Part shown: positions 5,653-8,187 of the stretch, piece after piece
Position numbering within the stretch: the stretch's first letter is position 1
How the letters are laid out: each line of letters opens with the position of its first letter
Source of the DNA: Bacillota bacterium
Lineage (GTDB): Bacteria > Bacillota > JADQBR01
NCBI GenBank assembly: GCA_016278515.1
Contig: JADQBR010000112.1
Coordinates: 1-24,000, forward strand
DNA: 24,000 nucleotides
Direction: 5' to 3'
The notes under the pieces: model-generated
What the model saw: only the letters and a program-made list of their open reading frames with translations
Databases searched by the model: none
Told to the model about the DNA's origin: nothing
Translations under genes and position numbers: made by a program

Positions 5653-7662
5653 ATAATAGATGCTCTAGGGAACAAAATCAGTACAATTGGTTATGACGTA
5701 TTAAATAATCCAATTACAGAAAAAGACGCGTTGGGAAATGCTATTACCAAAGATTACGACTTTCTGAACCGACTTGTTAAAATTACTGATGCTGCAGGAC
5801 ATATTACTAGTTATCAATATGATGAATTAAACAGACCATTAAGCACTATAGATGCGTTGGGAGGGAGTAGCAGTCAGCAGTTTGATCAGGACGGTAATCG
5901 CGTAGCTTTAATTGATTCCAATAATAACCGAATTGATTTTACTTTTGACGGTGTAGGGCGGTTAACATCCAACACTACCGTTAATGCTTACTCCAAAGAT
6001 TTTGTATATAATTCGCAGGGGCTTGTTGAAAGATCTATTAACGGCCGTGGGCAGGAAATAACTTATCAATACGATGAAGCGGGTCGGCTTGTTAACGTTA
6101 TAGATCCTTTAGGTACGGTTTCGTATACTTACGATGCTAATGGAAATATTCTAAGCGTTAGTTATAACTCCGAAATTTCATCTAGAGAGTATGATGCACT
6201 TAACCGGCTAACCAAATATACTGATATAAATGGTGATATTATTCAATTTGCTTATGATGAACTAGACAACTTAATCACTTTGACTTATCCTGGGGGTAAA
6301 CAAGTTCACTATGGCTATGATTCGGCTAACCGCTTAACAAGTGTTACCGATTGGGCAGGCCGTACAACTACTTATGAATATAATGCTAACGGAACTTTGG
6401 TTAAAGTGCTGCGTCCAGATGGGACGATATTAACCCGAAACTATGATTCAGCTGGTAAGATGATTGAGCAAATCGATGTGGATCCATATGGCAATAAAAT
6501 AAACCAATTCACCTATTCTTATAATTCAGTAGGAAATATTGTATATGAAAGTTCTAGTGCCTCGCAGCAATTGGATTTACTAGATTCAAATATGTCATAT
6601 GGCAGAGATAATCTTGTGATAAACTACAATAGTCAAGACATCAGTAATGATGCAGACGGAAATATGATATTCGGTCCCTTGGCACACAATATGGAGACTT
6701 ACTCATGGGATGCACATAATCGCCTAATCAGTGTAGGAGACACTAGTTATACTTATGATGCTGAAGATAATAGAGTTAGTGTAACTGACAGCGTCTACCA
6801 AACACAGTACGTGATTAACCCTAACGCTACCCTCAGTCAAGTGTTGATTAAGACTGACATGCTAAACAATAGCCAAACATTTTATGTTTATGGCCTAGGA
6901 CTAATTGGACAAGAAAATCCCGATGGCAGTTACCAAACATACCATTATGATTTACGGGGCAGTACGGTCGCTTTAACCGACGAAAATGGCAATGTGACGG
7001 ATCGCTTTTATTACGGACCTTACGGTGAATTACTGAGCCGTGACGGCGTAACCTCCACACCTTTTCTATATAACGGGCAGGATGGTGTAATGACTGATGC
7101 AAACGGACTTTATTATATGCGGGCCAGGTATTATAATCCTGAGATCAAACGGTTTGTAAGCCAGGACATTATGCTTGGTAATGTTCAGGATATAGGCAGT
7201 CTAAATCGTTATGCTTATGTTAAGGGACAGCCAATTTCGCTTATTGATCCGCTGGGACTTTGGTATCGTGAAATTGGGCTTCAAGGAAGCGTAAATTGGT
7301 GGGTATTTCATGGATCAGCTCAAATCTCATTGGCTCAGGAAGATACTGGCGAATGGGGAGTATTTTCTGCAATTAGTACCGGCGGCGGTGCCGGGCTGGG
7401 AGCTTCAGGAGGTATCACTTTAGGTTATTCTCCCACTGGAAAACTTGAAGATATTGAAGGACTATCATCGACTACTGGTGGTTCGGTGAGCATGGGTTTG
7501 TCAGGTGGTTATGATATCCAGGTAACGGGCAAAGGGGTTGTAACTCATCAAATTAATGCAGGAATTGGTTTTCCAGCTCTAATTCCTGTACCGGCAGAAT
7601 TTCATACGGATGCAACATACACAACTCGATTAGGTAAGAAGCCTGTGAGTAGTCTTAAATAA
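5653..7662 (+). CDS. rhs segment 3: YD repeats, Rhs core end and C-terminal toxin domain
   Basis: Same frame as segment 2. The stretch 5653..5730 reads IIDALGNKISTIGYDVLNNPITEKDA without stops, so the TTG at 5731 is not a genuine start. Confidence 0.75.
   Translation: MIDALGNKISTIGYDVLNNPITEKDALGNAITKDYDFLNRLVKITDAAGHITSYQYDELNRPLSTIDALGGSSSQQFDQDGNRVALIDSNNNRIDFTFDGVGRLTSNTTVNAYSKDFVYNSQGLVERSINGRGQEITYQYDEAGRLVNVIDPLGTVSYTYDANGNILSVSYNSEISSREYDALNRLTKYTDINGDIIQFAYDELDNLITLTYPGGKQVHYGYDSANRLTSVTDWAGRTTTYEYNANGTLVKVLRPDGTILTRNYDSAGKMIEQIDVDPYGNKINQFTYSYNSVGNIVYESSSASQQLDLLDSNMSYGRDNLVINYNSQDISNDADGNMIFGPLAHNMETYSWDAHNRLISVGDTSYTYDAEDNRVSVTDSVYQTQYVINPNATLSQVLIKTDMLNNSQTFYVYGLGLIGQENPDGSYQTYHYDLRGSTVALTDENGNVTDRFYYGPYGELLSRDGVTSTPFLYNGQDGVMTDANGLYYMRARYYNPEIKRFVSQDIMLGNVQDIGSLNRYAYVKGQPISLIDPLGLWYREIGLQGSVNWWVFHGSAQISLAQEDTGEWGVFSAISTGGGAGLGASGGITLGYSPTGKLEDIEGLSSTTGGSVSMGLSGGYDIQVTGKGVVTHQINAGIGFPALIPVPAEFHTDATYTTRLGKKPVSSLK
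7264..7659 (+). other. Rhs C-terminal (CT) polymorphic toxin domain of unrecognised type, about 132 aa and Gly/Ser-rich
   Basis: It begins immediately after DPLGLW. Sequence: YREIGLQGSVNWWVFHGSAQISLAQEDTGEWGVFSAISTGGGAGLGASGGITLGYSPTG...GGSVSMGLSGGYDIQVTGKG...PAEFHTDATYTTRLGKKP. It has glycine-zipper-like GxxxG strings and alternating hydrophobic patterns. I can see no nuclease, deaminase or ART motif. Confidence 0.6.
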
Positions 7663-7695
7663 ATCTATTCCCAAACCATTAGGAGCGAGTAATTT

Positions 7696-8187
7696 ATGAA
7701 GAATAATAGTCAAAAAATACTTTTTTTAGAAAAACAATACCTGAGATATACCCATATAATGCTATTTGTTATACCTATGATGGTAATGGGAATATTTAGT
7801 TTAGTCAAATTTTCTGATTTAATGTCGGTTTTGATGTTCTCACCAGTTACTGTAATTGCACCATTTATAGTATTTACAGGAAATATAACAACTAAAGTTC
7901 AATCTGATGGAGTATATTACCGGTTCTTTCCATTACATTTATCGTACCGAAGAATTCCACCAGAAAGTATTAAGAATTTTTATATAAAGTCTTTTGATTC
8001 TATAAAAAGATTACGTTGGGAATGGTCAAGATCACATAAACATACTTTTAAACCAAAGGGTTATACATTCCAAGAATGGGGAAAAGGAATGATGATCGAA
8101 GTGAATAATGGTAGTGACATTTTGCTTGGAACAAAAAAGCCAAAGGAGTTTTTGGAGGCGCTTGAAAGTATAACTCAAAATGATTAA
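7696..8187 (+). CDS. Candidate cognate immunity protein: two TM helices plus a small soluble C-terminal domain
   Basis: The start is 33 nt after the rhs stop, with RBS AGGAG. The 163-aa protein has two hydrophobic helices (IMLFVIPMMVMGIFSLV and LMFSPVTVIAPFIVF) followed by YYRFFPLHLSYRRIPPESIK...MMIEVNNGSDILLGTKKPKEFLEAL. Its position directly downstream of an Rhs-CT is the canonical immunity slot. Confidence 0.55.
   Translation: MKNNSQKILFLEKQYLRYTHIMLFVIPMMVMGIFSLVKFSDLMSVLMFSPVTVIAPFIVFTGNITTKVQSDGVYYRFFPLHLSYRRIPPESIKNFYIKSFDSIKRLRWEWSRSHKHTFKPKGYTFQEWGKGMMIEVNNGSDILLGTKKPKEFLEALESITQND

Follow-up and report, generated by a model that had tools for sequence, protein, structure and literature searches.

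Architecture of the locus

We analyzed a polymorphic-toxin locus in a 24,000-nucleotide stretch of DNA from a Bacillota bacterium (GCA_016278515.1, contig JADQBR010000112.1, positions 1 to 24,000; hereafter the window). The elements in question are the C-terminal domain of an Rhs gene (the tail, 132 amino acids (aa)) and, across an intergenic gap of 33 nt (7663-7695), an open reading frame (ORF) of 163 aa that is its immunity candidate (Table 1). An earlier reading made from the letters alone (the sequence-only reading) had singled out this pair as a possible membrane-targeting toxin with its immunity protein, and we found the DPLGLW motif, the 132-aa tail, the two glycine strings within it (GGGAGLGASGGITLG, residues 40-54, and GGSVSMGLSGG, residues 72-82), the gap, and the downstream ORF where that reading had placed them. 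On the evidence of sequence comparisons, the tail belongs to a family of C-terminal domains of polymorphic toxins that is undescribed and very rare, and the pair adds a new putative toxin and immunity family to the known polymorphic Rhs toxins.

Table 1. Coordinates of the Rhs locus, its lesions, and the adjoining genes in the window (AF2, AlphaFold2; TM, transmembrane).
Feature	Position	Strand	Evidence
Rhs locus as a whole	3561-9753	+	ORF list
Rhs gene, piece 1: Sec-type signal peptide, N-terminal region, DUF6531, first YD repeats; stop TAA 5163-5165	3561-5165	+	ORF list, Pfam
Reading-frame overlap, +1 shift of the Rhs frame	5143-5165	+	Three-frame translation and DNA
In-frame TGA within a YD repeat (…DNRI*IIDALGNK…)	5653-5655	+	Translation and DNA
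Remaining YD-repeat shell and Rhs-associated core, ending in DPLGLW	5656-7263	+	Pfam, NCBIfam
C-terminal toxin domain (predicted), 132 aa, Gly-rich, all-beta; stop 7660-7662	7264-7662	+	No family match; relatives; AF2
Conserved tail residues: S74; D84; E112; H114	7483-7485; 7513-7515; 7597-7599; 7603-7605	+	
AGGAG ribosome-binding site, 10 nt before the ATG at 7696	7681-7685	+	Sequence
Immunity candidate, 163 aa; TM1 ~7741-7806, TM2 ~7819-7881, basic C-terminal domain 7882-8184	7696-8187	+	Hydropathy and charge
Secreted protein, one YD repeat and four Big_5 domains	8296-9753	+	Pfam Big_5 (E 2e-85); tblastx with L007
First clear intrinsic terminator after the Rhs, immunity, and Big_5 genes: 11-bp stem, then T run	9780-9807	+	

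The gene that carries the tail has the parts of a Rhs/YD polymorphic toxin: a YD/RHS shell, a core ending in the DPxGL autoproteolysis motif, and a variable tail. Its first piece begins with a Sec-type signal peptide that can be read directly from the sequence (MKKKFFIVSVLVFLIIACMSPIASA) and matches DUF6531 (Pfam, E 1.4e-16). Pfam also reports RHS_repeat matches (E 4e-55 over 10 stretches in the 5656-7263 part, and E 3e-38 over 5 stretches). Among NCBIfam models, YD_repeat_2x matches with E 8e-38 and RHS_core with E 2e-38, yet the latter scores 132 bits against a cut-off of 2000. Rhs_assc_core (TIGR03696, E 8e-20) covers residues 428-510 of a 643-aa ORF and ends at nucleotide 7260; the DPLGLW codons (GAT CCG CTG GGA CTT TGG) occupy 7246-7263.

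A single unbroken frame from export signal to toxin was not found. The frame first changes at 5143-5165, where one frame reads ...QVSFN* and the next, open from ~5143, reads LINGNTTTYSY; this change is most likely a 1-nt deletion. The TGA at 5653-5655 then interrupts the gene a second time. A hairpin (5131-5150) precedes the sequence TTT AAT TAA, but programmed +1 frameshifting at this site was rejected: neither P-site codon is able to re-pair after a +1 shift, and the separate TGA interrupts the gene as well. Use of TGA as a sense codon was also rejected; the other genes of the window contain no internal TGA, and TGA terminates one of 19 long ORFs. Both lesions recur with 100% nucleotide identity in three other assemblies (L001, a JGI metagenome contig, and L002 and L003 from Logan), although all four may come from one population and the lesions are perhaps not independently confirmed. 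The simplest reading is that the Rhs gene was recently inactivated. The pair probably represents either an immunity-only locus or one that was inactivated recently, and since the frameshift and the nonsense codon disrupt the Rhs carrier, this strain probably does not deploy the toxin.

Taken further, this damage could mean that the pair in this genome is a dead remnant, with an Rhs pseudogene whose tail and adjoining ORF are intact only through the recency of inactivation, no toxin being made, and the ORF having no current role. The shared lesions fit such an account, as do the decayed surroundings (prkA, an insertion sequence (IS) remnant at 2834-3250, and a transposase in L001) and the condition of relatives, which are often orphan fragments (P0006, P0013, P0017) or, in locus L012, split by a frameshift. 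We nevertheless consider it very unlikely, given that the tail and the 163-aa ORF are free of lesions, that the ribosome-binding site is kept, and that orphan immunity genes can be useful on their own (PMC12744356). It also concerns the state of this copy and not the function of the family.

A very rare family of C-terminal domains

The tail has no match in Pfam or NCBIfam. For 10 family members no Pfam match was obtained at E<=1, and the family profile has no match among PDB sequences, in agreement with the earlier description of an unrecognized Rhs C-terminal domain. Compared with the preceding Rhs part, the tail is rich in Gly (18.9% vs 8.4%) and poor in charged residues (12.9% vs 19.2%).

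Relatives of the tail are few. A word-indexed homology search with the tail alone returned none. An exhaustive HMMER scan of 1.84 billion representatives yielded five true relatives (E 2e-8 to 6e-4); a further match, P0010, was dismissed as spurious, being a repeat protein with six matched stretches. A profile search of 5.8 billion clusters found nine relatives, six of them additional to the HMMER set, and one more was located in a fetched locus. Some 15 billion proteins thus contain ~14 sequences of the family. Scans of contigs with the family alignment returned nothing from genome contigs and only locus L007 from metagenome contigs. Because the tail has ~13 relatives, with which it shares invariant residues and 23-39% identity, and because it is modeled with a confident fold (below), it is not a chance ORF.

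Most relatives begin directly after the end of an Rhs core (…NPxNxxDPxG…), bearing out the earlier placement of the tail behind such a core; a few short relatives, the ORFs P0011 and P0012, show none. In P0008 (Logan contig L012, 1-880), a frameshift separates the toxin domain from the Rhs core, and a long Pro/Gly-rich linker follows DPTGH. Locus L010 (2-2152) holds two tandem toxin modules, each followed by its own gene for a protein with two TM helices (808-1152 and 1751-2152), and looks like an orphan-cassette array. The closest toxin relative, at 37-39% identity, is that of L007, a 3.7-kb contig (GCA_023230225.1, JALNXS010000220.1; also in JGI as Ga0265294_10050652). This contig is binned as a Methanocorpusculum sp. 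metagenome-assembled genome (MAG); it carries bacterial-type Rhs and Big_5 genes and is probably mis-binned.

In an alignment of 13 sequences, G40, G72, S74, and H114 are invariant, and G50, G66, D84, P108, and E112 are at least 90% conserved. The sequence-only reading had recognized no enzymatic motif in the tail; with S74 and H114 invariant and D84 and E112 nearly so, that statement is unsafe. A groundwater subfamily is distinguished by the C-terminal end PxEFHGGSTYTW and by three conserved cysteines.

A membrane protein is encoded directly after the toxin

The 163-aa ORF has hydrophobic segments at ~residues 16-37 and 42-62, with hydropathy maxima at 16-34 and 42-60, consistent with the small inner-membrane protein proposed earlier for this position. 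The C-terminal 103 residues contain 17 K/R vs 11 D/E and probably form a cytoplasmic, bPH-like domain. The earlier description of two TM segments with a soluble tail, here ~100 aa long, was sound, whereas the PH-like identity of that tail is weakly supported: DUF6141 (PF19638) matches residues 39-108 only (E 7e-6, 26.3 bits vs a cut-off of 27), and the homologue in L007 has weak Pfam matches to bPH_5 (E 0.011) and EbsA (E 0.008). A literature search found no mention of DUF6141. A search with the 163-aa protein returned only itself among 5.8 billion clusters, a PDB sequence search with the immunity alignment returned nothing, and the single-sequence AF2 model was poor (predicted local distance difference test (pLDDT) 44.5). 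Imm17, a two-TM family with a WxW motif, gave no Pfam match at E<=1 to the window protein or to five downstream membrane proteins from other loci, while Imm-CdiI was not checked by name; these are the only two-TM immunity families described by Zhang et al. (2012) (PMC3482391).

We inspected 11 modules in 10 loci (the window, L007, L014, L004/L005, L009, L010 with two modules, L012, L013, L008, which is truncated, and L100). In all 11, the gene directly after the toxin encodes a small membrane protein. The sequences of these proteins differ. L007 encodes a 180-aa homologue of the window's 163-aa protein (BLASTP E 4e-6), and L014 has a permuted layout with the soluble domain preceding two TM helices. 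The candidates of L004/L005, L009, L010 (both modules), L100, and the truncated L008 are 96-133 aa long with a TM helix at each end, a K/R-rich loop, and a common LYRKxxNP motif. Those of L012 and L013 likewise have a TM helix at each end and a loop, without clear sequence similarity to the LYRKxxNP group. In three loci of the groundwater subfamily, a gene for a conserved single-TM protein with Pro/Thr-rich linkers and the motif QYGGWYWQ follows the two-TM gene (L004 5758-6204, L008 1852-2319, L009 1843-2328).

There are thus three or more unrelated immunity architectures, all of which keep two TM helices. Such retention would be expected of a protein that must encounter the toxin within the bilayer, and diversity of architecture with a constant membrane location fits the usual diversification of immunity genes. 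Since the soluble parts are K/R-rich, the positive-inside rule predicts that they are cytoplasmic.

Predicted fold of the tail and alternative activities

With a 10-sequence alignment, AF2 predicts an all-beta domain (pLDDT 86.7, predicted template-modeling score 0.75) with strands at residues 2-12, 15-25, 31-43, 46-55, 66-88, 93-103, and 111-126. In this model the Gly/Ser/Thr-rich domain of ~130 aa would consist of about eight amphipathic strands that form a small barrel-like unit. Across the family, residues along each strand alternate between two faces, one hydrophobic (mean hydropathy of 1.2-2.0 for most strands) and the other composed of Gly, Ser, Thr, Asn, or Cys. The strands are nearly free of charge, the exceptions being the conserved D84 and E112, and S74, D84, E112, and H114 all lie on the small/polar face. 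Comparison of the two halves of the tail gave no significant internal two-fold repeat (hhalign E 0.02, probability 2.3%).

The glycine strings are present as the sequence-only reading described them, but the helical zipper that they had suggested is not what the model predicts. A GxxxGxxxGxxxG pattern does occur formally (G42, G46, G50, G54); residues 31-55 are predicted to be a beta hairpin (block pLDDT 84-94), and no 19-residue window of the tail reaches a mean hydropathy of 1.6. The strings are predicted to be strands and hairpin turns.

A Foldseek search of the AF2 model against the PDB gave no match at E<1e-3. The best matches were VapB, VapD, and VapG of Rhodococcus equi (E 0.015-0.05, TM-score 0.40-0.55, root-mean-square deviation 5.4-6.4 Å), followed by partial matches to GFP barrels.

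The arrangement of the conserved residues raises the possibility that the tail is a small membrane-associated enzyme, with S74, D84, E112, and H114 as a Ser-His-acid type of site that would hydrolyze or modify a substrate bound to the membrane, for example a phospholipid, lipid II, or an undecaprenyl carrier; the role of the immunity protein would be to shield this substrate or to block the enzyme at the bilayer. The invariance of S74 and H114, the conservation of D84, E112, and P108, the common strand face of the four polar residues, and a G-x-S-x-G sequence around S74 in about half of the members would all suit an active site, and a membrane-bound immunity protein would suit a membrane substrate. 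This is how beta-barrel lipid enzymes such as PagL, PagP, and OMPLA act. None of these three, however, is within the top 50 Foldseek matches, searches of Pfam, NCBIfam, and PDB sequences revealed no hydrolase family similar to the tail, and GxSxG is not kept across the family. Moreover, invariant polar residues are also found in the depolarizing toxin domain Ntox25 (D33, S38, K91, D92, and E123 in a four-member alignment). Overall, we regard an enzymatic tail as unlikely.

Alternatively, the tail could be a soluble Vap/avidin-like beta-barrel that binds a target or ligand in the cytoplasm, in which case the two-TM proteins would block import at the membrane or use their cytoplasmic domains to sequester the toxin. 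Soluble closed barrels are indeed the nearest solved folds, the immunity loops and domains are K/R-rich and therefore probably cytoplasmic, and two-TM immunity proteins such as Imm17 and Imm-CdiI may prevent uptake (Zhang et al., 2012; PMC3482391). Yet whichever face is exposed, the surface of the strands consists of Gly, Ser, Thr, and Asn with hardly any charge, which would be unusual for a soluble cytoplasmic protein. In the model, the first strand starts at residue 2, so that DPLGLW and the barrel have no domain for entry or translocation between them, and three unrelated immunity architectures all have two TM helices. A soluble binder is, in our estimate, decidedly unlikely.

Comparison with known membrane-active toxins

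The closest parallels to the pair are toxins that depolarize membranes. The Ntox25 domain of CdiA2 from E. coli EC93, of the contact-dependent growth inhibition system CDI-2, dissipates the membrane potential (PMC8190604). AF2 predicts a tapered beta-barrel for it, and the helical glycine zipper of Tse4 has been re-read in the same way (PMC11630599). We confirmed that the EC93 CdiA2 C-terminal domain is Ntox25 (PF15530, E 9e-23), ~130 aa long and Gly-rich; the gene after it encodes a very hydrophobic CdiI of 162 aa, which we read as polytopic. Like the tail, Ntox25 is a Gly-rich, mostly-beta C-terminal domain of ~130 aa on a polymorphic toxin, and the next gene encodes an apparently integral membrane protein, a likeness that is one of analogy only. 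Membership of the tail in Ntox25 was rejected: no Pfam match was found in 10 members, hhalign against the four-member alignment gave a probability of 0.4%, and FGPY is absent. The carriers differ as well, Ntox25 being borne by a type V secretion system (T5SS) CdiA of Proteobacteria and the tail by a Sec-exported monoderm Rhs protein, and the polytopic EC93 CdiI contrasts with the two TM segments and bPH-like domain of the window protein.

Tse4 of P. aeruginosa (PA2774) forms ion-selective channels and depolarizes cells (PMC12169545). It is a small Gly/Ala-rich effector that occurs in the inner membrane along with its immunity protein, Tsi4. Homology was rejected (BLASTP E 1.7, hhalign probability 0.2%); for this comparison Tse4 was rebuilt from published mass-spectrometry peptides placed in an assumed order, so only local matches count. 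Tse4 is also a stand-alone, Hcp-dependent type VI secretion system (T6SS) cargo, whereas the window domain is an Rhs tail.

The R. equi Vap proteins (VapA, VapB, VapD, VapG), which include the best solved neighbors of the tail, are eight-stranded closed beta-barrels of ~110 residues with Gly-rich strands. VapA binds and permeabilizes membranes and neutralizes vacuole pH (PMC10100859). Profile comparison with six Vap proteins again excluded homology (hhalign probability 0.3%; no Pfam match), and Vaps differ from the tail in being host-directed virulence factors with neither an immunity gene nor an Rhs carrier. Taken together, these comparisons suggest that the tail at most works like Ntox25, Tse4, or the Vap proteins and is not a member of their families.

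Tse5 (RhsP1) of P. aeruginosa, the cognate toxin of Tsi5, combines an Rhs cocoon with a pore-forming, depolarizing C-terminal domain (PMC9637101, PMC10684867), and Rhs proteins can therefore deliver membrane-active cargo. In contrast to the window protein, Tse5 is Gram-negative and depends on the T6SS and PAAR; the tail is set apart from Tse5 by its lack of Pfam and NCBIfam matches, not by a direct comparison with the Tse5 tail. Depolarizing toxins with membrane immunity proteins are also known as Gram-positive EsxX (PMC12744356) and as the five-helix CDI ionophores, whose immunity proteins are membrane-embedded (PMC11630599).

Helical glycine-zipper toxins share the formal GxxxGxxxGxxxG pattern with the tail, in which it falls in a predicted beta hairpin and in no hydrophobic helix. 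TelE is a Gram-positive member of this class. Their four-residue glycine spacing is only partly kept in the 13-sequence alignment of the window family.

WapA is a Sec-exported Rhs/YD-repeat toxin with a variable C-terminal toxin and an immunity gene directly downstream; its tails are tRNases with a soluble WapI, and it has cell-wall-binding repeats. The window Rhs protein resembles WapA in export and gene order, but the first 350 aa of the former have no family assignment. WapA of B. subtilis is cited as a Gram-positive Rhs example (PMC12169545).

A proposed membrane-depolarizing toxin with in-membrane immunity

By analogy with Ntox25 and Tse4, we propose, with a probability of about one half, that the tail represents a new beta-type family of membrane-depolarizing toxins whose immunity protein acts in the membrane. 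In a Clostridia-type monoderm, an Rhs protein that is Sec-exported and WapA-like would carry the domain as its cargo, and the Rhs core would cut this domain off at DPLGL|W. The released domain might then enter the cytoplasmic membrane of the target cell, as a small beta-barrel or as an oligomer of amphipathic hairpins, where a leak of ions or protons would collapse the membrane potential. The protein encoded at 7696-8187 would be the cognate immunity factor, with a two-helix hairpin in the membrane and, next to the membrane on its cytoplasmic side, a basic domain of bPH-like type, and would neutralize the toxin within or at the bilayer.

This proposal starts from four observations: the family exists, an Rhs core precedes most members, the all-beta model is confident, and a membrane protein is linked to the toxin in every locus checked. 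Genomic context and the analogous systems suggest that the tail targets membranes, and from the same sources we infer that it inserts and lets ions leak, what topology the immunity protein has, and that the two bind each other directly.

Several points weigh against a depolarizing toxin. What is known of the function of every family member comes from sequence and prediction. Invariant S74 and H114 with near-invariant D84 and E112 would typify an enzyme more than a passive pore, GxSxG can be read around S74 in about half of the members, and these conserved Ser, Asp, Glu, and His residues leave room for an enzymatic tail. Comparing its profile with those of Vap, Ntox25, and Tse4 gave negative results throughout, the structural match of the model to Vap is weak, and the PDB offers nothing better at E<1e-3. 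The hydrophobic strand faces in the model could point into a soluble core instead of toward lipid, and if those parts of the immunity proteins that lie outside the membrane are cytoplasmic, as predicted, a toxin that acts inside the cell would fit as well. Finally, the Rhs gene is broken in this genome.

A more specific version of the depolarizing mechanism is tentative, and we would sooner doubt it than accept it. The family would be a third sequence-unrelated lineage of small beta-barrel ionophores, beside Ntox25 and Tse4, and the first on a Sec-exported monoderm Rhs protein; the narrow lumen of the barrel, with the conserved Ser, Asp, Glu, and His along its wall, would conduct protons or cations, and a membrane-anchored bPH protein would serve as the immunity factor.

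Depolarizing cargo is already known for T6SS, CDI, and type VII secretion system (T7SS) toxins. Among EsxX, the CDI ionophores, Tse5, Ntox25, and Tse4, only Ntox25 and Tse4 are predicted to be of the beta type, and both are proteobacterial. The family described here is plausibly a beta-type ionophore. If so, it would widen the set of bacterial solutions for puncturing membranes by a beta domain on the Rhs proteins of Clostridia-like and groundwater bacteria, and it would offer a small, tractable 132-aa model for how a water-soluble beta protein passes from an Rhs cocoon into a bilayer. It would also suggest a first function for the membrane-anchored PH-domain proteins of the DUF6141/bPH type, which are currently without one. 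The family is extremely rare and the window copy lies in a broken gene, and its ecological weight is probably small.

Genomic surroundings and host

The Big_5 gene at 8296-9753 shares a transcription unit with the Rhs and immunity genes, there being no terminator between the tail and 9780-9807, and tblastx shows a homologous Big_5 gene beside the L007 toxin. YhbH, encoded by an intact gene at 11755-12930, is 72% identical to a Thermoanaerobacteraceae MAG protein and 57-65% identical to proteins of other Bacillota. The host is therefore taken to be a spore-forming monoderm, and the Rhs protein to be of the Sec-exported, WapA-like kind.

The neighborhood of the pair looks eroded: the 5' half of prkA is missing, and the locus is flanked by an IS remnant and a transposase. 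The PrkA ORF (12934-13965, minus strand) starts at profile position 276; its AAA half is missing and was not found upstream. The spoVR gene is absent, and its expected place beside yhbH (10920-11543, minus strand) is taken by RelE/ParE-like (93 aa) and AbrB/SpoVT-like (112 aa) ORFs, assigned from their sequence only. The IS remnant upstream of the Rhs gene is transposase-like, and in L001 a complete DDE_Tnp_1 transposase (669-2327) abuts the point at which the window begins.

Directly upstream of the Rhs locus lies an agr-like quorum-sensing module (48-1834, minus strand) with AgrB and a HATPase_c_5 histidine kinase (Pfam, L001) and a 156-aa ORF without any match. Farther downstream, 14520-14879 encodes a small secreted protein of 119 aa with an extremely Gly-rich C-terminus (GFGFGFGRGMGMGIGFGGPGFGCGGW), which looks like a bacteriocin-like or cell-envelope protein.

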